A DNA stretch of 36,691 nucleotides from a virus, in the IMG/VR virus record IMGVR_UViG_3300029203_000014. One strand, written 5' to 3'. The notes under the pieces are model-generated. The model saw only the letters and a list, made by a program, of their open reading frames with translations. It searched no databases and was not told the origin of the DNA. Below are positions 1 to 36,691 of the stretch, piece by piece (positions within the stretch are counted from its first letter, which is position 1; each line of letters opens with the position of its first letter). Position numbers and translations under genes: made by a program.

Positions 1-93
1 ATGGCAGGGGTAGAAGGATTCGAACCCTCGGCACGCGGTTTTGGAGACCGCTGCTCTACCAACTGAGCTATGCCCCTATGTAAAAAGCCCACA
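1..93. repeat. Left copy of 93-nt terminal direct repeat (tRNA-Trp plus 16 nt of its 5' flank)
   Basis: Compared base by base with 36599-36691: 93/93 identical; the window starts and ends on the repeat, so its true extent cannot be seen. Confidence 0.95.
2..77 (-). tRNA. tRNA-Trp (anticodon CCA), CCA end encoded
   Basis: Reverse complement folds as a cloverleaf: AGGGGCA acceptor, GCTC/GAGC D stem, GCGGT-CTCCAAA-ACCGC anticodon arm, GAGGG-TTCGAAT-CCTTC T arm; one C6-A67 acceptor mismatch. Confidence 0.9.
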
Positions 94-328: not shown

Positions 329-357
329 ATTATACTGGATTATACCCCAACTGTCAA
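329..357 (-). promoter_or_regulatory. Consensus sigma-70-type promoter of the tRNA operon
   Basis: Minus strand TTGACA (357-352), 17-nt spacer, TATAAT (334-329); A/T-rich UP-like tract upstream (358-385); tRNA-Asp starts about 45 nt downstream. Confidence 0.8.
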
Positions 358-878: not shown

Positions 879-2507
879 TGGCAGGGGTAGACCGCTGCCG
901 CCCGTATGCGAAAAATTTTGAAGTTCCGAAAACGGCATTGTTTCGATGGCCTTCGGGATGGCAGAGGGGTTCAGCCGGGCGGGGTTCAGGATAATGCGCA
1001 GCCGGCTGCCGCGCGGGCCGTCATCAAACACAACAATTTTATAGATCAGGTCGCGCACGATTACGCGCATTTTTTCGGGTTGCAATTCGCGCAGGTTTAT
1101 GCCGGACCACACGCGGCGCAGTTCATCCACACTGGCGGCGGCTGATTCTGCGCTGATGTCCAGATCGTTGGCCTGGGCCAGCAGGGTCATGCGCTGTTTT
1201 TGCAGGGCGTTGATGCGCTCAATGGCCCCGGCAGCATCCAGGCCGTTTTCGATGGCCTGATACAGGCGGTCGACCTTTTGCTGTATTATGCCGGCTTCCT
1301 GCTTGAGTTCTTTGGCGCGCTCTGCGTTGCGGCCATCCGGCTGCAGGGCTTCCAGCACAGCAACACATAGGGCATCCATATTAACAGGATCCAGCACAAT
1401 ATGTTGAATATAATCAATCACTGCATTCTCTAAGCGGTCAGCGTTGACGCGGTGGGCGTGCGCTCCCCCGTCGTGCTGCCGGTGCTGGGCAGTGCAGCGG
1501 TAGTACCGGTACTCCACCGCCTTGCCGTGGCTGTTGTAGCGGTGCATTTCGCCGGACATGACCCCGCCGCAGCCGCCGCAATATACCAGCCCGGAAAGCA
1601 GGTAGAAAGCCTTTGCCTTGTACTGGGCGTTGCGGTGCTTGCGTTTATCCATTTCGTCCTGCACGGCCTGCCACTGTTCCGTGGGGATGATCTGCGGCAT
1701 GCCATTCTCCACGCAAACCCATTCGTCCCGCGGTTTGAGCCTGCGGCGGCTGGTGCGGCCGTCCACATCGGCGGGGGCCAGGCGATTCCAGATATACAGG
1801 CCGGTGTATTTTTCGTTGCGCAGGATGTCGTACAGGCTGTTTTTGCCGAATGGCTGCCCCCGGCGGGTTACATAGCCCCCAGCGTTAAGGGCATCTATAA
1901 TTTCAGTGTAGCCCGCTCCCTGCTGGTACAGCTTGAAGATCAGCTGCACCGCCTCAGCCTCCCGCGGAACAATGGCATACTGGCCTGTAGATTTATCCAC
2001 CGTATAGCCCAGCGGCGGCGGGCCGCCGGTGGTTCTTGCTGTAAGAGCGTTTTCGCGCAGACCTTTGGCAACCTCCTGCGCCAGATTGGCGCTGTACCAT
2101 TGGTTGATGGCCTTGGTTACATTGCGCATGAACTGGCCTTGCGGAGTGGCGTCAAAGTGTTCCGCCGCGGAAATGACCTGAATGCCCTGCCGGCGCAGCT
2201 GCATTTCGACTACCGTCTGCTGATCCGCGTTGCGGAAAAAGCGGTCCAGCTTGTGCACGATGATGTATTGCACCCCGGCGGCTGCCGCATCGGCCAGCAT
2301 GCGCTGAAACTCCGGGCGTTCACCCCGGCGGCCAGAATTGCCATGGTCCTTATACACCTGTACCAGCTCATACCCTGCCGTGGCGGCAAAGGTGACGATT
2401 GCACGCTGTTGGGCCTCCAGGGATTCCTCGCGCTGCTCATTGGTAGATTTACGGCAGTAGCCGAAAGCCCGCGGGGCTTGCATAAGAGATGGAATTGTAG
2501 CAGACAT
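861..2507 (-). CDS. int: Large serine recombinase (phage integrase)
   Basis: 548 aa. N-terminal resolvase-type domain (FGYCRKSTNEQ...RPEFQRML...IIVHKLDRFFRN), recombinase domain, Cys-rich zinc ribbon (CGGCGG...YYRC) and C-terminal coiled coil. Confidence 0.9.
   Translation of the reverse strand: MSATIPSLMQAPRAFGYCRKSTNEQREESLEAQQRAIVTFAATAGYELVQVYKDHGNSGRRGERPEFQRMLADAAAAGVQYIIVHKLDRFFRNADQQTVVEMQLRRQGIQVISAAEHFDATPQGQFMRNVTKAINQWYSANLAQEVAKGLRENALTARTTGGPPPLGYTVDKSTGQYAIVPREAEAVQLIFKLYQQGAGYTEIIDALNAGGYVTRRGQPFGKNSLYDILRNEKYTGLYIWNRLAPADVDGRTSRRRLKPRDEWVCVENGMPQIIPTEQWQAVQDEMDKRKHRNAQYKAKAFYLLSGLVYCGGCGGVMSGEMHRYNSHGKAVEYRYYRCTAQHRQHDGGAHAHRVNADRLENAVIDYIQHIVLDPVNMDALCVAVLEALQPDGRNAERAKELKQEAGIIQQKVDRLYQAIENGLDAAGAIERINALQKQRMTLLAQANDLDISAESAAASVDELRRVWSGINLRELQPEKMRVIVRDLIYKIVVFDDGPRGSRLRIILNPARLNPSAIPKAIETMPFSELQNFSHTGGSGLPLPKAQQL
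891..914. repeat. 24-nt repeat copy 1 (inside the int 3' coding end)
   Basis: ACCGCTGCCGCCCGTATGCGAAAA; matches 4205-4228 at 23 of 24 positions, same orientation. Confidence 0.95.
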
Positions 2508-2640
2508 GATATTACTCCCTGCCTGCCGGATTTCCCGGCAGGGCTTTTTACGCCATATGCAGCCGTTCTTTCAACGCCTGCCTGCTTCCGGGTGGAAAAC
2601 TCTGTGCGGCGGTCAAGCTCTTTTTTCCCTTGCGAAAAGC

Positions 2641-2672
2641 AAATGCCAGCCATAAAAATATGGCTGGCATTT
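2641..2672 (-). terminator. Terminator downstream of the DUF4177-like gene
   Basis: Perfect 14-bp stem AAATGCCAGCCATA/TATGGCTGGCATTT with AAAA loop, T-rich flank on the minus strand. Confidence 0.7.
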
Positions 2673-2687
2673 GCAAATACTAGTTTA

Positions 2688-2954
2688 TCAGCCCAGCTTT
2701 TCAAATACCATGGTTGCCTGAATACGGTCGCCGCCCATTATGCCTTTGCTGCCGCTGCTTGTGGTGGAGATAGTATGCAGGCGGTATCCCTTGGCTGCCT
2801 GTTCGTTGATGACTTTCTCCAATTCTGTCAGATTGCCGGAACCTGTGCCAATAAATTTTTCTTTCAGGGTAACCTGCAGCACAACATACTGGTAGCTGAT
2901 GCCAGATCCCCTGGAGAACGTAGATTCCTCTTGAATCGTGTCAAAAATGCCCAT
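2688..2954 (-). CDS. DUF4177-like small protein
   Basis: 88 aa; AGGAGG SD. Pattern ...YQYVVLQV...LEKVINEQAAKGYRLHTI...ATMVFEKL resembles the DUF4177 family (recognised by eye). Confidence 0.45.
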   Translation of the reverse strand: MGIFDTIQEESTFSRGSGISYQYVVLQVTLKEKFIGTGSGNLTELEKVINEQAAKGYRLHTISTTSSGSKGIMGGDRIQATMVFEKLG

Positions 2955-2995
2955 GATAAATACCTCCTGCTTTTTATACCGCTATAATAAGCAAA

Positions 2996-3024
2996 AGCCC
3001 CTGCCAACTATTGCGGCAGGGGCT
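2996..3024 (-). terminator. GC hairpin between the repressor and the DUF4177-like gene
   Basis: AGCCCCTGCC/GGCAGGGGCT 10-bp stem, 9-nt loop, followed on the minus strand by CTTTTGCTT. Confidence 0.5.
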
Positions 3025-3120
3025 GCTAAACATAGATACAAACGGGTAAATAATATAATTTACCCGCATTCCCCTTGAATCCTTGTATATAAAGTAGCAC
3101 AAACGGGAAAGAATTGCAAC

Positions 3121-3158
3121 AAAAATACCGCAGTCTGATGTTTGACTGCGGTATTTTT
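3121..3158. terminator. Bidirectional terminator after the repressor gene
   Basis: AAATACCGCAGTC/GACTGCGGTATTT 13-bp stem flanked by A5 and T5 runs, 26 nt past the repressor stop. Confidence 0.75.
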
Positions 3159-3183
3159 GATCAAAATTGCCAGCGCCAGAGGA

Positions 3184-3663
3184 TCAGGTGGCAACTTCGG
3201 CGGCGTTTGGGTCGTTTTCGGTGGTGGCTTGCTGGGCCAGCATTTCGGCTTCACTGCGCTCCACATTGCGGGTCAGCTGCATGACAAAGCGGCTGATAGA
3301 CACCCGCGCGGCGGTATCCATGTTGACATAGGTGCGGATCACCTCACGGCCAATATAGTCCAGATCGTACTTCTGGGCCAGTTGTTCCACCAGGTCGTCC
3401 AGCGCTGGGGCGTTGAACATGGCTTCCGGGCCGCCGGTGCCGTTGCGCAGCCAGTCCTCGTTGACGTCAAAAACACGGCAGATAGAAAGAACGTTTTGAT
3501 CCGTGACCTTGCACAAACCTTTTTCGAGTTTGCTTACCGCAGATTTGCCAATACCTAGCTGCTTTCCGAATTCCTCCAGCGTCATCCCGCGCGCCTTGCG
3601 AACGGCTTTAACGCGATCGTTTATTGTGCTGATATTATCACCTCCCTTCGCGTTTCGTTGCAT
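3184..3663 (-). CDS. XRE-family HTH immunity repressor (CI-like), no S24 peptidase domain
   Basis: 159 aa. HTH VKAVRKARGMTLEEFGKQLGIGKSAVSKLEKG and the NEDWLRNGTG motif typical of Gram-positive phage repressors. Divergent from the early operon. Start codon uncertain (see findings). Confidence 0.85.
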   Translation of the reverse strand: MQRNAKGGDNISTINDRVKAVRKARGMTLEEFGKQLGIGKSAVSKLEKGLCKVTDQNVLSICRVFDVNEDWLRNGTGGPEAMFNAPALDDLVEQLAQKYDLDYIGREVIRTYVNMDTAARVSISRFVMQLTRNVERSEAEMLAQQATTENDPNAAEVAT

Positions 3664-3665
3664 TT

Positions 3666-3694
3666 AGTATAGCACAAAAAGTTGAATAAAGCAA
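3666..3694 (-). promoter_or_regulatory. Repressor-proximal promoter (extended -10)
   Basis: Minus strand TTGCTT (3694-3689), 17 nt, TGCTATACT (3674-3666); the -10 ends only 2 nt before the annotated ATG. Confidence 0.55.
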
Positions 3695-3715
3695 CAAAAA
3701 AATTGAAATTTGGAG

Positions 3716-3744
3716 TTGACAATGTTGAATCAAGATACTATAAT
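3716..3744 (+). promoter_or_regulatory. Consensus early (lytic) promoter
   Basis: TTGACA (3716-3721), exactly 17 nt, TATAAT (3739-3744); points toward the early operon whose first ORF starts at 4261. Confidence 0.8.
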
Positions 3745-3843
3745 AAGGGCATAGGGTAGAACAAAGACACAGCTAAAGAGAATCAAGACACAAGTTGCTG
3801 TGGTATCTACCACTATTATACCCAGAAAGGTTCTTCAAATTCT

Positions 3844-3866
3844 TGCCCTATCTCATGCACAGGGGC
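3844..3866. repeat. Left arm of 23-bp perfect inverted repeat
   Basis: TGCCCTATCTCATGCACAGGGGC; exact reverse complement at 4048-4070 (the outer 3 nt add 2 more matches). Confidence 0.95.
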
Positions 3867-3878
3867 ACCGCCTATTTA

Positions 3879-4013
3879 TCAGTGCTCAGTCTTTTGCAGG
3901 GTATAAGTCATTGTTTTGGGATTACCGGCCCAGTAGGACCAGTAAATCAATTCGTATCCGTCAGTCAAGAGTTGCTTTACTTCGGCAACGGATTTTACAG
4001 TGACTTTTTTCAC
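3879..4013 (-). CDS. 44-aa micro-ORF enclosed by the inverted repeats
   Basis: AAAGGAGGTG SD (4030-4021), 7 nt, GTG 4013. Product MKKVTVKSVAEVKQLLTDGYELIYWSYWAGNPKTMTYTLQKTEH. Weak resemblance to the C-terminal half of the DUF4177-like protein. Confidence 0.55.
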   Translation of the reverse strand: MKKVTVKSVAEVKQLLTDGYELIYWSYWAGNPKTMTYTLQKTEH

Positions 4014-4047
4014 AGCAGCACCTCCTTTCCGTCACGAAAGAGGGTGC

Positions 4048-4070
4048 GCCCCTGTGCATGAGATAGGGCA
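4048..4070. repeat. Right arm of 23-bp perfect inverted repeat
   Basis: GCCCCTGTGCATGAGATAGGGCA = reverse complement of 3844-3866. Confidence 0.95.
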
Positions 4071-4172
4071 GGAGCAAAAAAATTATATGTTAGGAGATCA
4101 ATGCCTTTGCGGTGCGGCCTGGTGCGTGTGCCTGCGCACCATCAGCTATGCACTGCTGGCATTGGTGGGGAG

Positions 4173-4181
4173 ATTATAGCA
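4173..4181 (-). promoter_or_regulatory. Extended -10 promoter candidate facing the early promoter
   Basis: Minus strand TGCTATAAT; weak -35 (TTGTGC, 18-nt spacer); would transcribe leftward through the IR-bracketed micro-ORF. Confidence 0.4.
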
Positions 4182-4204
4182 TGGGGCAGCACAGCGGCAC
4201 AAGA

Positions 4205-4228
4205 ACCGCTGCCACCCGTATGCGAAAA
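4205..4228. repeat. 24-nt repeat copy 2 (early-operon leader)
   Basis: ACCGCTGCCACCCGTATGCGAAAA; 23/24 identical to 891-914. Confidence 0.95.
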
Positions 4229-4260
4229 GCGCCCCGCACAGGGGCAGAAAGGAAAACAGA

Positions 4261-4416
4261 ATGGAAAACACAAAGATGCTTACTAATGAAGAGCTGGCCA
4301 AAGAGCTGGCAAAAATGACCCCGGCGGAACGCGCCCAGGCTATGGCCTATGTGATGGGCCTGGTGGCCGGCAAAGCTCAGGCCAAGGCCGCGGAACCCGC
4401 AGGCGGCGCGGCATGA
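4261..4416 (+). CDS. Hypothetical early protein (51 aa)
   Basis: AAAGGA SD; ATG 4261; stop overlaps the next start (ATGA at 4413-4416); GC3-rich codons. Confidence 0.6.
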   Translation: MENTKMLTNEELAKELAKMTPAERAQAMAYVMGLVAGKAQAKAAEPAGGAA

Positions 4417-4985
4417 CGCCGTTAGAACGCAGCTGGGCCGCTGCCCTGTGCGCCAGTGGGGATGCTGTTGCCAACATGGGCACGGATGCCCTGCGCCTGG
4501 TAGCAACCAAAAAGCCGCAGGACGTTACCAGCGCCGGAATTATGGAGAGCGCCCACAAACTGGCCCGCGCCTGCCGGATCGCTGACGCCACAACCACCAG
4601 CACCCCGGCGGCCCAAAAAGCCGCCGACGCCTATGCGCTGGAAGCTGCCCTGTACGCCGTAGCATATGAAGCTGCACGCCTTGTGCGGTCTGATATGTGG
4701 CGGCTGGTGGCAATGCGGCTGGATGAAGCGCAGGAAGTTGGCACAAGAACGTCTGAATTGCACATCCGGCAGCCGCTGGGCAAGCTGATTATGCGCCGCC
4801 ACCCGCTGGCCGTGCGCGGATCGACCGCCCAGAACCTTGTGGACGAGCTGCTGTACGCCGCGGTAAAGCGCGGCAGGCGGCAGCAGGACTGGGCAAGCGC
4901 GCTGGAAGCCGCTGTGGCCTGCGGCTGCATGATGGACGCTGTGCTGAACTACCCGCCCAGATGGGAGAACCAAGATGGAAAATGA
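4413..4985 (+). CDS. Hypothetical early protein (190 aa)
   Basis: Translationally coupled ORF with phage-typical codon bias; no recognisable domain. Confidence 0.7.
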   Translation: MTPLERSWAAALCASGDAVANMGTDALRLVATKKPQDVTSAGIMESAHKLARACRIADATTTSTPAAQKAADAYALEAALYAVAYEAARLVRSDMWRLVAMRLDEAQEVGTRTSELHIRQPLGKLIMRRHPLAVRGSTAQNLVDELLYAAVKRGRRQQDWASALEAAVACGCMMDAVLNYPPRWENQDGK

Positions 4986-5142
4986 AGAATTTGTGATTGC
5001 GGAGGGCTTTTTGCCGGACGGCACCCCGGTGCTGCCGGGCGCACGCCTGACCGATGAAGCAATACATTGCATTGCCCCCATGCTGGCAGAGCTGTTTGCG
5101 GCGGCACTGGCACGGGAAACCGATAAGAAAAGCGAGGCATGA
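4975..5142 (+). CDS. Hypothetical early protein (55 aa)
   Basis: ATG 4975 overlaps the end of the previous ORF; fills the gap to 5146; MENEEFVIAEGFLPDG... Confidence 0.5.
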   Translation: MENEEFVIAEGFLPDGTPVLPGARLTDEAIHCIAPMLAELFAAALARETDKKSEA

Positions 5143-5145
5143 ACG

Positions 5146-5562
5146 ATGGAAGCCAGAGAATTAAAGGACATGACCGCCGTGCTGCGGTCCATCAATGACG
5201 GCAACCCCAGCAACGCAGAGCGCTGGGTGAACCTGACCCAGCGCGTGATCCGCGCCGAATATCGCGCCAACACGGCAGAGCGAGCTGCCGCCCGCAAAGA
5301 TTGGGAAAAGCAGAATGCCGAAGATGATGCCTGGATGGCCCGCTACCGCGCCGAAGAAGCCAAGCTGGCAGCGCGGCAGGCACAGGAAAATGCAAGCCTG
5401 TGGCGCTGGACTACTGTGGCCATGGCCATTGCACTGGCACTGGCTGTGGCATTTGGCACACACCAGGCGAATGAGGCCGCCCGCTGGCGGTACGAAGCCC
5501 AGGGAATGGGACAAACGGAGATTGTTACCCCGCAGAATCAGAACACGGCGGTGCAGCCATGA
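5146..5562 (+). CDS. Hypothetical membrane-anchored protein (138 aa)
   Basis: Coiled-coil N-terminus, one hydrophobic helix (WTTVAMAIALALAVAFG); ATGA coupling to the next ORF. Confidence 0.7.
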   Translation: MEARELKDMTAVLRSINDGNPSNAERWVNLTQRVIRAEYRANTAERAAARKDWEKQNAEDDAWMARYRAEEAKLAARQAQENASLWRWTTVAMAIALALAVAFGTHQANEAARWRYEAQGMGQTEIVTPQNQNTAVQP

Positions 5563-5849
5563 CGGTGCTGGAATGGCTGCAGGAACTAGAAGAGGAAGAG
5601 CGGATCGTCAAGGTTGGCTGCGTGGACAACACCCTGCGGGGCCTGCGCCGCTGCACCGCCAGAATGGCCGCCGCCAGCTACCTGCACTGGGCCTGCCCGG
5701 AATACCTTGCGCCGCAGCTGGGGCTTGCATTTGAGTGCAAAAGCCCGGCGGTCAACAACGAAAAATTTTGCGAGCGCTGCGCGGCAGCGTTTTTGTCCGC
5801 GCAGATGCCGAACACGGGGAGAGTGAAAAAGCCATGGACGCACCAATGA
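5559..5849 (+). CDS. Hypothetical Cys-containing protein (96 aa)
   Basis: Coupled ORF; no recognisable domain. Confidence 0.6.
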   Translation: MTVLEWLQELEEEERIVKVGCVDNTLRGLRRCTARMAAASYLHWACPEYLAPQLGLAFECKSPAVNNEKFCERCAAAFLSAQMPNTGRVKKPWTHQ

Positions 5850-6512: not shown

Positions 6513-6858
6513 CCCCGCCCCGGCGGGGCAGATATGCCGCCAAAGCTGCACGAGGCCGCGGCGGCCCCTGAATCCTCCCACAGTTGCTGCGTGGGCAAGT
6601 ACGGCAACACCACTGTGCAGGTAATGCACAACGCCCGGCACCGGCCACTACTCCCGGCTTGTGCCCGGCGGCCGCCTGTTAGCTTTTTAGCCCGGCTTTT
6701 TCCACCGGGTGCCAGGCCCCTGCGTGCAGATTGCCAAGCGCCGCGGGTGCGCCTGGGCAGGCGGGTTTTTATGGTGCGTGTGCAGCACCGGCATGGCCCA
6801 AGCAACCCATGCCGCCCGGATCAACACCGGGACGCACTGCCAAAGAATGGGTGGTTGA

Positions 6859-34437: not shown

Positions 34438-34713
34438 ATGGATTTTGCATCTTTTGGCATCGCATCCGTTGCCTGCATCACCGTTATCTGCTACCTTGCC
34501 GCAACGGCTGTCAAGCAGACCCCACTGGCAAATAAGTGGCTGCCGTCCATTTGCGGCGCCCTTGGCGGCCTGCTGGGTCTGGCCGCCATGTACATCAACG
34601 TGCCAGACTTCCCGGCAGGCGACCCATTGACAGCGCTGGCCGTGGGCATTGTTTCCGGCCTGGCTGCGACCGGCGCGGATCAGGTTATCAAGCAGGCAAG
34701 CAAAGACAACTGA
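34438..34713 (+). CDS. Holin
   Basis: 91 aa; AGGAGG SD; hydrophobic segments (FGIASVACITVICYLAA; WLPSICGALGGLLGLAAMYI; LTALAVGIVSGLAATG) and charged tail KQASKDN; adjacent to the lysin. Confidence 0.75.
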   Translation: MDFASFGIASVACITVICYLAATAVKQTPLANKWLPSICGALGGLLGLAAMYINVPDFPAGDPLTALAVGIVSGLAATGADQVIKQASKDN

Positions 34714-34750: not shown

Positions 34751-34805
34751 AAGCGGCGGGCTTTTCCTCATTTCAGGGATTGCCCGCCGCTTATTTTTTT
34801 TATTT
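34751..34805. terminator. Bidirectional terminator between the holin and the convergent cassette
   Basis: AAGCGGCGGGC/GCCCGCCGCTT 11-bp stem, 20-nt loop, followed by a long T run; the AP2 gene stop lies at 34800-34802. Confidence 0.8.
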
Positions 34806-35276
34806 TTGCTGGTCTTTTTGCGCATTGTACCACGTTAAAAACTCACCAAAGAGGCGCTGCTCTGCCTCTTTGCGGGCGGCAATGGCTTTATTTTTGTCGG
34901 CGCCGCAATACAGGTGGTACCGCTCCCCCTTAAAATAGATGTATGCGACATATTTTCCGTCTTTTCTGCACGACACACCGCGCACGCCTGTGGTGTTGTT
35001 CCGTTGGGCTTTGCTCGATGATATTCGGCTAACGTTGGTGCCGTCAACCTGCCCGAGCTTATCGGCAATGGGTTTGGTGGTCAGGTTGCGGTTTTTTATG
35101 CACCCGCAGCTGATCTGCTTGGAGTGGGCGATGGTACGGCTCGGCAGCTCCACGATTTTACCGCAGTTAAGGCAGCGGCAGCGGAAAACCCGGTTGCCGT
35201 CTTGCCTCTTCGCAGTCGGCTCGATAACGTACAGATAGCCAAATGTTTGCCCGGATAAATCCTTAAACGGCGGCAT
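34800..35276 (-). CDS. AP2-domain DNA-binding protein
   Basis: 158 aa. N-terminal L.GQTFGYLYVIE...RCRCLNCG...CGC zinc motif and AP2-like NTTGVRGVSCRKDGKYVAYIYFKGERYHLYCGADKNKAIAARKEAE. Confidence 0.65.
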   Translation of the reverse strand: MPPFKDLSGQTFGYLYVIEPTAKRQDGNRVFRCRCLNCGKIVELPSRTIAHSKQISCGCIKNRNLTTKPIADKLGQVDGTNVSRISSSKAQRNNTTGVRGVSCRKDGKYVAYIYFKGERYHLYCGADKNKAIAARKEAEQRLFGEFLTWYNAQKDQQK

Positions 35277-35279
35277 GGC

Positions 35280-35696
35280 TTAGCCCTCAAGGTAGGCACG
35301 TAGCGCAGCGCGTACAACTTCGCTGCGGTTGCCGCCGCCCGCAGTGACACGGGCGTCCAGCTTGTCCAGCAGCTCCTGCGGTAGCAGGACGTTGAGGCGG
35401 GCATCCTCTACCACCTCGCCAAACGCCGCCTCGTAGGTGTTGCCGTCAAGGTACTTCTCTGCCCACTCGCGGGCGGCGTCCTCGGTGATGGGGGTGATCT
35501 CCTCGCCCCAGCCCCAGTTGCCATCCTGTTTGGGGAAACCGTTGCCGTAGTTGTGTATAAAATACTTGCCCGCCTTGGTGCGGTATAAATCTTGTCCGCG
35601 ATAGTAGATGTCATTGGGCAAGAAATTGTTTTCGTGAACACCGAGCCGCTGGGCGGTTTCGGTGTTGTAGCGGCTGCCGTTGATGATCTTTTTCAT
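35280..35696 (-). CDS. Two-domain protein with C-terminal ribbon-helix-helix (CopG/Arc type)
   Basis: 138 aa. AAGGAG SD. N-terminal MKKIINGSRYNTETAQRLG...LYRTKAGKYFIH... domain common in Firmicutes mobile elements. C-terminal RLNVLLPQELLDKLDARV...RSEVVRAALRAYLEG. Confidence 0.6.
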   Translation of the reverse strand: MKKIINGSRYNTETAQRLGVHENNFLPNDIYYRGQDLYRTKAGKYFIHNYGNGFPKQDGNWGWGEEITPITEDAAREWAEKYLDGNTYEAAFGEVVEDARLNVLLPQELLDKLDARVTAGGGNRSEVVRAALRAYLEG

Positions 35697-35716
35697 GGTG
35701 TGGCTCCTTTTTTATA

Positions 35717-36148
35717 TTACATCTGCTTTGCGTCAAAAAGCGACGATACGGATACGATCTCAAAGGGGATTTCTTCGCGCTTGCCGGAGCTGGTCGGTGC
35801 GGTTATGGTCAGCGCCTGCAGCGCCTCGTCAATGGCTTGATCATAGTCGCCTGTCACGCGGATGGCGGGGACGAAGGCAAGGACCAGATCGATGTTGCCG
35901 TCCTTGGCTTTGTAGTCGGAGCGGATGCCGCCCGGCACAGCGTGGATGAAGTCGGGCAGGGAAACCGTCACGGCTTTGTGGTGCGGTATGCCTTTGGGTT
36001 CGTGACCTTCGTAGCTCCAGCCTTCCGGCAAGCGAAAGTTTCTGTAGGTGTCGTTCTGTACGGCGGTGAAATAGGCGTTTTCGGCGGGGGTGTAATTGCC
36101 GGTGCGGTGGGATGCCAAAGCGATGGTGATGATAATCTCGGTAGTCAT
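35717..36148 (-). CDS. Hypothetical protein, first gene of the cassette (143 aa)
   Basis: AAAGGAGA SD. No confident family. The segment DGNIDLVLAFVPAIRVTGDYDQAIDEALQAL is faintly HicB/UPF0150-like. Confidence 0.55.
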   Translation of the reverse strand: MTTEIIITIALASHRTGNYTPAENAYFTAVQNDTYRNFRLPEGWSYEGHEPKGIPHHKAVTVSLPDFIHAVPGGIRSDYKAKDGNIDLVLAFVPAIRVTGDYDQAIDEALQALTITAPTSSGKREEIPFEIVSVSSLFDAKQM

Positions 36149-36201
36149 AGTGTTTTCTCCTTTGTTTGTGTGGGGTGTTTCGTATCTCTTATGTTGTACT
36201 T

Positions 36202-36230
36202 ATTATAGCACAGATAATATTTAATGTCAA
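36202..36230 (-). promoter_or_regulatory. Consensus promoter of the three-gene cassette (proximal)
   Basis: Minus strand TTGACA (36230-36225), 17 nt, TATAAT (36207-36202); about 47-nt leader to ATG 36148. Confidence 0.75.
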
Positions 36231-36234
36231 TGCG

Positions 36235-36263
36235 TATTTACAAAAAATATTATTTTATGTCAA
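36235..36263 (-). promoter_or_regulatory. Second, distal promoter candidate of the cassette
   Basis: Minus strand TTGACA (36263-36258), 17 nt, TAAATA (36240-36235); the ATTGACAT box is repeated 33 bp from the proximal one. Confidence 0.5.
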
Positions 36264-36274
36264 TAGGAGACTTT

Positions 36275-36484
36275 GCCGCCACCGCGGTCAAGCAGACCCC
36301 GCTGGCCAACAAATGGCTGCCGTCCATCTGCGGCGCCCTTGGCGGCCTGCTGGGCCTGGCCGCCATGTACATCAACGTGCCGGATTTTCCCGCCACTGAT
36401 CCCCTGACCGCCCTGGCCGTGGGCATTGTTTCCGGCCTGGCTGCGACCGGCGCGGATCAGATCATTAAGCAGGCGAGCAAGTAA
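36275..36484 (+). pseudogene. 5'-truncated second holin copy (lacks the first 20 codons / TM1)
   Basis: Codons 21-89 of holin 34438-34713 align without gaps. 180/207 nt are identical and 67/69 aa identical. No SD or in-frame canonical start at the homology boundary (about 36270). Confidence 0.7.
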
Positions 36485-36598: not shown

Positions 36599-36691
36599 AT
36601 GGCAGGGGTAGAAGGATTCGAACCCTCGGCACGCGGTTTTGGAGACCGCTGCTCTACCAACTGAGCTATGCCCCTATGTAAAAAGCCCACA
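36599..36691. repeat. Right copy of the 93-nt terminal direct repeat
   Basis: Identical to 1-93; runs to the last base of the window. Confidence 0.95.
36600..36675 (-). tRNA. tRNA-Trp (CCA), second copy or the same gene seen twice
   Basis: Sequence identical to 2-77. Confidence 0.9.

Follow-up and report, generated by a model that had tools for sequence, protein, structure and literature searches.

A candidate self-repressed, acr-aca-type anti-defence operon between the lysis genes and the attachment site of an Oscillospiraceae prophage

The IMG/VR virus record IMGVR_UViG_3300029203_000014 is a stretch of 36,691 nucleotides (nt), referred to here in its entirety as the window. It represents the prophage of a temperate phage whose host belongs to the Faecalibacterium/Subdoligranulum group of the Oscillospiraceae, and it encodes a large serine integrase at 861-2507 on the minus strand. 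Towards its other end, three minus-strand open reading frames (ORFs), termed here P1, P2 and P3, follow one another with intergenic gaps of 20 nt (P1-P2) and 3 nt (P2-P3). This cassette is interpreted, with moderate confidence and on comparative grounds, as an autonomous, self-repressed anti-defence operon of the acr-aca type (anti-CRISPR, Acr, genes with anti-CRISPR-associated, Aca, regulators), lying in a hotspot between the lysis genes and the attachment site (att) and carrying P1 as its candidate effector. It comprises the following features.

34751-34792, both strands: hairpin terminator common to the holin gene and the cassette, outside the mobile module
34800-35276, minus strand: P3 (158 amino acids, aa), a CapR-like four-cysteine zinc ribbon (aa ~9-60) followed by an AP2 domain (aa ~94-146), from profile and homologue matches
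35280-35696, minus strand: P2 (138 aa)
35286-35399, minus strand: C-terminal ribbon-helix-helix (RHH) of P2 (aa 100-137; Pfam RHH_1), the proposed autorepressor domain
35412-35696, minus strand: N-terminal domain of P2 (aa 1-95), a conserved family
35717-36148, minus strand: P1 (143 aa), cargo and candidate effector, of a rare phage-only family
36157-36160, minus strand: Shine-Dalgarno GGAG of P1, in a 5' untranslated region kept in relatives
36202-36230, minus strand: sigma-70 consensus promoter TTGACA-17-TGcTATAAT with extended -10 (12/12 hexamer matches plus TG)
36214-36222, minus strand: putative downstream operator arm AAATATTAT, inside the promoter spacer
36245-36253, minus strand: putative upstream operator arm ATAATATTT, just upstream of the -35 hexamer
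36258-36263, minus strand: TTGACA hexamer 33 bp upstream of the promoter, with no -10 partner

The initial annotation of this locus, drawn from the sequence alone, had described three tightly packed minus-strand genes encoding a 143-aa protein without a confident family, a 138-aa protein ending in a clear RHH and a 158-aa protein with a zinc motif and an AP2 domain, and these descriptions hold. The ORFs and gaps lie where it placed them; P1 matches no family in Pfam, PHROGs, NCBIfam or PADLOC; residues 100-137 of P2 match RHH_1 above the cut-off (E 3.9e-8, 33.4 bits versus 20.5) and belong to that family; and P3 shows invariant cysteines (C35, C38, C57 and C59, in a CxxC...CxC pattern) together with family-profile matches to the AP2/ERF structures 7wq5 (E 4.7e-4) and 7et4 (E 6.6e-4). 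The genes had also been placed under tandem consensus promoters. A perfect TTGACA-17-TATAAT promoter is indeed present, read from 36230 to 36202 and with an extended -10 TG besides; perfect sites of this kind number three in the 36.7-kb window against 0.06 expected by chance, and the cassette copy is invariant in the related loci L003-L010, L071 and L027. The second TTGACA box exists as well, but inspection of the sequence around 36263-36258 found no acceptable -10 hexamer and the position reads TTGCGT in L027, so that it was rejected as a second promoter and the cassette has one consensus promoter rather than a tandem pair. The two other perfect promoters of the window are found at 329-357 (minus strand), upstream of a host tRNA Asp-Thr-Trp array (a tRNA operon), and at 3716-3744 (plus strand), divergent from a CI-like helix-turn-helix (HTH) repressor gene (3184-3663), where the site is presumably the phage early promoter. 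At the distal end of the cassette, the shared terminator folds with -31.2 kcal/mol on the plus strand (z -4.9) and -27.1 kcal/mol on the minus strand (z -5.3), and a different terminator occupies the same junction in L071. A terminator-like hairpin inside the P3 coding region (34847-34872) was dismissed as not significant, since 3 such sites were seen against 3.7 expected.

The two operator arms form a perfect 9-nt inverted repeat, ATAATATTT-22-AAATATTAT, with its halves 22 nt apart and on either side of the -35 hexamer. In L027 the arms read ATATTATTT-23-AAATAATAT, differing from the window by one compensatory double change. At the same positions L011, in which P2 shows 58% identity, contains a perfect AT-rich inverted repeat of 20 nt, and L014, with P2 and no P3, has two AATATTAT-type copies. 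Operons with an RHH regulator (window, L027, L011 and L014) hence carry AATATTAT-type repeats upstream of the -35 hexamer and in the spacer, whereas operons with an XRE-type HTH regulator carry GC-rich palindromes in the spacer (GGCTAATATTAGCC in L026, GGCCAATTTTGGCC in L001 and CGCCTTTATAGGCG in L016). The predicted operator type thus follows the regulator type, AT-rich repeats accompanying RHH and GC palindromes accompanying HTH, and this correspondence supports autorepression by the P2 RHH. The autoregulation proposed at the outset in this way gains indirect support (repeats flanking the -35 hexamer, one compensatory change and a switch of operator with regulator), with the paired arms as the putative binding site of P2. 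Autorepression by an RHH protein has been demonstrated experimentally for Aca14 (bioRxiv 10.64898/2026.07.27.740549) and for the RHH-Acr domain fusion AcrIE10 (PMC13530269).

P2 belongs to a sizeable family of 248 homologues (cluster representatives), with relatives in 79 GTDB species genomes, mostly of Bacillota, the best of which is a Subdoligranulum variabile metagenome-assembled genome (MAG) at 88% identity. The family profile matches the CopG structures 1b01 and 2cpg (E 0.0027), pointing to a CopG-type RHH; the N-terminal domain has no match in Pfam, NCBIfam or the Protein Data Bank (PDB), a profile search of the PDB recovering the RHH part only. This N-terminal domain also occurs in stand-alone and tandem forms, two or three tandem stand-alone paralogues without RHH being seen in the Bacillota genomes of L145, L170, L181, L184 and L195. 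In the cultured Lactobacillus phages LFP01 and JNU_P7 the interval from the lysis module to the integrase ends with a P2 homologue. A P3-like gene follows the P2-family gene in 11 of the 79 species-level loci, spread over Bacillota, including some in which P2 lacks the RHH.

The leading alternative to an anti-defence operon, itself unlikely, is a toxin-antitoxin (TA) or abortive-infection module serving addiction or phage exclusion, in which P2 would act as an antitoxin in the manner of HicB, neutralising through its N-terminal domain and repressing its own operon through the C-terminal RHH, with P3 or P1 as its toxic or effector partner. P2 does resemble HicB-type antitoxins in joining a globular N-terminal domain to a C-terminal RHH under a strong promoter with autoregulation (predicted for P2), an arrangement equally typical of type II TA operons. 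Its RHH weakly matches several antitoxin families (HicB_lk_antitox at E 8.6e-4, ParD, BrnA and RelB-like), the 3-nt gap between P2 and P3 suggests coupled translation, and the recurrent P2-P3 order would suit such a pair. The most serious counter-evidence to the anti-defence reading comes, together with the P2-P3 pairing, from the Methylobacterium plasmid NZ_CP155001.1 (L220; 2501-3363), on which a distant P2-family protein with N-terminal domain and RHH is encoded 8 nt upstream of a PemK/MazF toxin gene (Pfam E 6.6e-10) that adjoins parA; this is the only case seen of the family in a classical antitoxin position. The 'HicB' annotation of this Methylobacterium homologue stems from its RHH, and an assignment of the P2 N-terminal domain to HicB was rejected, because an hhalign comparison with a HicB protein aligned the RHH part only. 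No HicB relationship of the N-terminal domain is hence detectable, and P2 homologues may stand alone after lysis genes, as in L122, which also speaks against a TA module.

P3 by itself does not match the Pfam AP2 family. Six of its 17 homologues do (best E 1.3e-8), which, with the structure matches given above, places P3 among AP2 proteins. The CapR homology domain (PF21817) is matched weakly by P3 (E 0.015, 15.9 bits, below the cut-off of 24.2) and by 4 of the 17 homologues with E values down to 4.2e-5. The best PHROG matches of P3 are annotated as HNH endonucleases (phrog_374 at E 7.7e-25, phrog_13470 and phrog_99), and these alignments cover DNA-binding segments only, such as positions 191-255 of the 617 in phrog_374. 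No nuclease domain was found with Pfam in P3 or its homologues, and P3 is therefore not counted as an HNH homing endonuclease; NCBIfam and PADLOC yielded nothing useful for either P3 or P1. P3-like genes also end similar post-lysis cassettes in other prophages (L016-L020). In L021-L024 (~1668-5585), a P3-like protein with two zinc ribbons and an AP2 domain is encoded on an element inserted at cotJC, with RadC and a SAM-synthetase gene on one side of it and DUF3560 on the other. RadC and DUF3560 are typical of anti-restriction or leading-region islands.

The composition of P3 bears on each of the alternatives. With regard to a TA module, no toxin domain such as would be expected beside the antitoxin of a type II TA system is found in P1 or P3 (Pfam, PHROGs, NCBIfam and PADLOC), and the two DNA-binding domains account for P3 in full. 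PADLOC likewise returned no match to known anti-phage defence systems for P1, P2 or P3 at E values up to 1. The HNH annotations might instead indicate a remnant of a free-standing homing endonuclease, that is, selfish DNA that homed into the holin gene and left a holin duplication as its scar; CapR and AP2 domains are among the modules with which homing endonucleases of phages typically bind DNA (PMC8096241). This explanation is regarded as very improbable, given that the 158 residues of P3 match the DNA-binding segments and hold no nuclease domain. Lastly, the presence of DNA-binding domains in two of the three proteins raises the prospect of a purely regulatory module, in which P2 and P3 would act as transcription factors and P1 as a ligand- or partner-binding co-factor, controlling the phage's own genes or those of the host in a CapR-like manner (e.g., for superinfection immunity or the repression of rival elements). 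CapR, from the PLE satellite of Vibrio cholerae, arose by domestication of a homing-endonuclease domain; it represses a phage capsid operon and requires its four cysteines for DNA binding (PMC8096241). P3 shows a four-cysteine domain resembling that of CapR and followed, as in AP2-HNH homing endonucleases, by AP2, and the nuclease has been lost in both CapR and P3. CapR, however, is related to T5orf172/GIY-YIG endonucleases and lacks AP2, and the CapR score of P3 stays below threshold. A solely regulatory function is considered quite unlikely; elsewhere in the window no second paired copy of the operator was found, only scattered single 9-mers.

Evidence in favour of an anti-defence operon comes from related loci. 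The survey of relatives for exchanged cargo that had been suggested with the initial annotation found that the genes ahead of P2 differ between phages:

Window, L028, L071 and others: P1
L027: 72 aa + P1 + 101 aa
L124 (a phage with different lysis genes): 65 aa + 62 aa
L011 (same flanking genes as L027): 80 aa + 96 aa

The conserved core consists of the promoter, the putative operator, P2 and P3, and the cargo upstream of P2 is exchanged from one phage to another. Such operons therefore display the acr-aca hallmark of a conserved 3' DNA-binding regulator, represented by P2/P3, behind variable 5' cargo, and they lie on a mobile genetic element, identified here by the serine integrase and the att cores at 879-891 and 36600-36612. 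Furthermore, the 65-aa product of the first gene in L124 matches the Pfam family AcrIC5 (PF22147; E 3.9e-8, 33.7 bits versus a cut-off of 27), and the 72-aa product of the first gene in L027 is its homologue. Two more AcrIC5 homologues are encoded in L156 (a Faecalibacterium MAG) and L198 (an Oscillospiraceae MAG), alongside P2-family genes, zinc-ribbon/AP2 genes or both, and a profile of the four cargo proteins matches the AcrIC5 structure 7yhr with E 6.6e-11 over residues 3-57 of 60. Broad inhibition of type I-C CRISPR-Cas has been validated for AcrIC5, orthologues of which are known from Firmicutes (PMC7913775). Hosts of this kind offer a target, clades of F. prausnitzii carrying type I-C or type I-E CRISPR-Cas (PMC12716062). 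The AcrIC5 homologues fill the cargo slot of sister operons with the same promoter/operator and P2-P3 genes (L124 and L027) and share P2-family and AP2 genes with the window operon elsewhere (L156 and L198); P1 differs from AcrIC5 in being unrelated in sequence, twice as long and predicted to be beta-rich. The 72-, 80-, 96-, 101-, 138-, 160-, 86-, 78- and 184-aa cargo proteins have no functional PHROG match. In L198 an identical 29-nt promoter, TTGACTTACAGTGCAACTCATGATATAAT, precedes two adjacent operons (3123-3151 and 4006-4034), one encoding an acidic 72-aa protein and a P2-family protein and the other the AcrIC5 homologue and a P3-like protein, which suggests that neighbouring anti-defence operons may be co-regulated; the same duplication would also suit a regulatory module. 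On balance, the exchange of cargo and the AcrIC5 homologues point to effectors and not to regulators alone, and variable small acidic genes between promoter and core, AcrIC5 homologues among them, are foreign to TA operons. Homology to a validated Acr appears, by these matches, as a property of the operon family and not of the window copy. P1 takes the place of the cargo in a family of operons that elsewhere carry AcrIC5 homologues, and is therefore a candidate inhibitor of bacterial immunity. Guilt by association of this kind is the way in which many anti-CRISPR genes were found.

P1 itself belongs to a family of 26 representative clusters among 1.84 billion proteins, all on phage contigs. 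Searches with tblastn against 50,697 GenBank phages returned nothing, and a pattern scan of 185,579 GTDB species genomes, for which the wider P1 alignment is too divergent, found no relatives. The P1-family profile gave 0 matches to PDB sequences, and hhalign detected no relationship between the P1 and P2 families. With distant family members added to the alignment, AlphaFold2 predicts P1 with a pLDDT (predicted local distance difference test) of 91.4, a model from close homologues only (pLDDT 39) having been discarded; Foldseek found no relative of the confident model in the PDB (best E 0.22, template modelling score below 0.3) and family members only among the viral models of BFVD. The protein is mildly acidic (isoelectric point 5.25) and predicted to be beta-rich. 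On reading the alignment, its invariant residues are mostly glycine, proline and hydrophobic, with no catalytic-looking ones evident, and this pattern argues for a binding protein rather than an enzyme.

Without exception, members of the P1 family stand next to a small RHH or HTH protein or form a fusion with one. In L026, P1 occurs without P2 and is followed by an 87-aa XRE HTH protein; in P0017 an HTH that shares 63% identity with this protein is fused to P1; in P0145 and P0159 P1 is fused to N-terminal HTH domains; and, among more distant members, HTH proteins stand on both sides in L209 and a small RHH protein directly upstream in L212. The fusion of P1-family domains to XRE HTH in three architectures would also be in keeping with a regulatory co-factor. 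Pairing with unrelated regulators and fusion to HTH at either end speak against a TA pair. The pattern mirrors that of bifunctional Acr-Aca proteins and the RHH/HTH swap of AcrIF25 and AcrIE10 (PMC13530269).

The limits of the cassette and its surroundings are defined by these additional features.

34438-34713, plus strand: intact holin gene (Phage_holin_5_2, Pfam E 2.8e-20), the left flank of the module in the window
34796-36275, minus strand: whole mobile module (promoter/operator, P1, P2 and P3), 1,480 bp by blastn
36270-36480, plus strand: holin 3' fragment without the first ~18 codons, 87% identical to 34493-34703, the right flank
36600-36612, with a second copy at 879-891: 13-nt attachment-site core TGGCAGGGGTAGA, at the 3' end of tRNA-Trp

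By blastn, 34796-36275 of the window corresponds to 7546-9024 of L071 at 96% identity, with unrelated flanks on both sides: in L071 the module is flanked by a GerE-like gene on one side and an unrelated 131-aa gene on the other, and no holin fragment is present. A promoter-pattern scan of IMG/VR recovered 11 contigs, all with P1-P2-P3 and each in one of two contexts, the second of which (L071, L111, L116 and L117) shows neither holin fragment nor target duplication. Relatives were sampled as 80 IMG/VR loci with an endolysin at least 91% identical, 36 of which have at least 1.5 kb downstream of it, and the cassette is found in 3 of these 36. In the remainder this position is taken by a membrane protein resembling dCTP deaminase, by a Dam methylase together with an HTH protein, or by a 472-aa fusion; with cargo differing so among relatives, the lysis-to-att interval is a hypervariable hotspot in this phage lineage. 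The dCTP-deaminase-like protein (L057, L062, L063, L078, L082 and L098, downstream of the holin) has 267 aa, a DCD domain (Pfam E 7.6e-10) and a hydrophobic C-terminal part, and is a candidate defence gene. The 472-aa protein of L091 and L093, ~1.2-3.2 kb downstream of the endolysin, combines three XRE HTH domains with AP2 and a zinc ribbon of the CapR type; an acidic protein of 185 aa precedes it and is likewise encoded on the minus strand. Its presence in the same hotspot would lend some weight to a purely regulatory module, against which the dispensability of the cassette in most close relatives has to be set. That the cassette is an autonomous unit, as had been proposed, agrees with its sharp 1,480-bp bounds, its own promoter, its patchy occurrence among relatives and its two flanking contexts.

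The holin copies that bracket the module allow the homing explanation to be weighed further. Sharp module boundaries and flanking direct repeats of the holin 3' part are what homing into that gene might leave behind. The context represented by L071, with no holin fragment and no duplicated target, argues against it, and the two copies differ at 27 of 211 nt, with 21 synonymous against 3 non-synonymous codon differences; since the differences are mostly synonymous, the copies derive from different alleles joined by recombination and not from target-site duplication. With the holin alleles of L106 and L009, moreover, the fragment shares 92% identity. To judge from this closer match and from the synonymous changes, it is a recombination scar of a different functional allele and not a local duplication; in relatives it has decayed to ORFs of 48-84 aa. 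Were the two holin copies to recombine, the cassette would be lost and an intact holin of chimeric sequence would remain.

The cassette had been thought to reach the genome end. Instead, the 211-nt holin fragment and its own terminator separate the cassette promoter from the att end, and ~330 bp lie between that promoter and the end of the prophage. This true end is the 13-nt core at the 3' end of tRNA-Trp, given that in contigs of attP form (L005 and L115) position 36612 is joined straight to 879. A 93-bp terminal repeat of the window (1-93 and 36599-36691) was rejected as the att site, as it represents the whole tRNA-Trp gene in duplicate around a real core of 13 nt. Positions 1-878 are host DNA, on which a second Trp-Thr-Asp tRNA array is found. 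At its 3' end the serine-integrase ORF overlaps with the att core; the protein comprises 548 aa in this prophage and 565 aa in L005, a contig of attP form, its C-terminus being therefore altered by integration. Elsewhere in the prophage, ARAGORN predicts in the early region (6746-6842, plus strand) a tRNA-His of unusual length (97 nt), and a perfect palindrome, GGGTAAAT-AATATA-ATTTACCC, which could be a terminator or an operator, lies at 3045-3066 between the CI-like repressor gene and a small gene beside the integrase.

In the anti-defence operon envisaged here, the very strong sigma-70 promoter would drive P1, P2 and P3 as a single transcript, with translation of P3 probably coupled to that of P2 because the two genes lie just 3 nt apart. 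Most probably in the form of a dimer of dimers, the RHH of P2 would bind the two AT-rich arms flanking the -35 hexamer and in the spacer, and so shut the promoter down once the products have accumulated. P3, as a nuclease-free pair of DNA-binding modules of the homing-endonuclease type and a conserved partner of P2, would be a second Aca-like regulator, and may control other operons too. P1 would be the exchangeable cargo, most likely a protein-binding inhibitor of a host immune system. We infer operator binding by P2, the role of P3 and the anti-defence activity of P1 from comparative sequence analysis, and the view of the initial annotation, an autonomous and autoregulated accessory system with the 143-aa protein as its probable effector, gains support from the comparative survey, including the AcrIC5 homologues in sister cargo.

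Several observations weigh against this interpretation. The window operon is without a recognisable Acr, no member of a known Acr family being matched by P1, P2 or P3 in Pfam or PHROGs, and P1 shows no similarity to known anti-defence proteins in Pfam, PHROGs, PADLOC or a Foldseek comparison with the PDB. Four sister loci underlie the guilt-by-association link, and the operator assignment draws on seven loci with a single compensatory event. A large distance separates the operon from the phage early region, and it converges with the late genes, an unusual arrangement for genes required at the very outset of infection. Lastly, the P2-family member ahead of a PemK/MazF toxin gene and the pairing of P2 with P3 in 11 of 79 genomic loci would both fit an antitoxin-toxin-like pair.

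The closest parallels among known systems are those of Aca14 (bioRxiv 10.64898/2026.07.27.740549) and AcrIE10 (PMC13530269), which share with the cassette a strong promoter overlapped by AT-rich inverted repeats, variable small 5' cargo and an operon-encoded RHH protein, a repressor in those systems and a predicted one in the case of P2. The likeness of Aca14 to P2 is that of a shared RHH fold class. AcrIE10 joins its RHH, which binds as a dimer of dimers, to another globular domain, and P2 also combines an RHH with a globular domain; the RHH is N-terminal in AcrIE10, whereas in P2 it is C-terminal and follows a domain of ~95 aa. The interchange of RHH and HTH regulators and the occurrence of Acr-regulator fusions are described in the same two papers. 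The cassette differs from both systems in possessing a second DNA-binding gene (zinc ribbon plus AP2), for which they offer no counterpart, and in residing in a Gram-positive gut anaerobe. Since RHH-regulated acr operons and RHH-Acr fusions were already described in 2026 (bioRxiv 10.64898/2026.07.27.740549; PMC13530269), the kind of system is not new, only its parts. No description of the P1 family, the P2 N-terminal domain or a zinc-ribbon/AP2 partner in such operons was found in the libraries and literature searched. It is a tentative suggestion, and one more open to doubt than the operon assignment itself, that P1 founds a new anti-defence (possibly anti-CRISPR) family with a fold absent from the PDB, and that P2 and P3 represent two new classes of Acr-associated regulator, P3 being the first derived from domesticated homing-endonuclease modules.

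The anti-defence genes known from phages of strictly anaerobic gut Firmicutes (Faecalibacterium and relatives, for instance) are few, and P1, with a confidently predicted structure for which no relative was found, is a testable candidate inhibitor. P2 and P3 are candidate regulator families for guilt-by-association mining, both occurring with AcrIC5 homologues in several divergent elements. If the proposed function is correct, the P2 family, which is spread over phages, prophages and plasmids of Bacillota, could mark anti-defence genes in gut Firmicutes, and a zinc-ribbon/AP2 Aca would answer the question, posed in the 2026 Aca14 preprint, of acr regulators with folds beyond HTH and RHH. The clean boundaries of the module and the holin scar, for their part, show how such cassettes move between phages.

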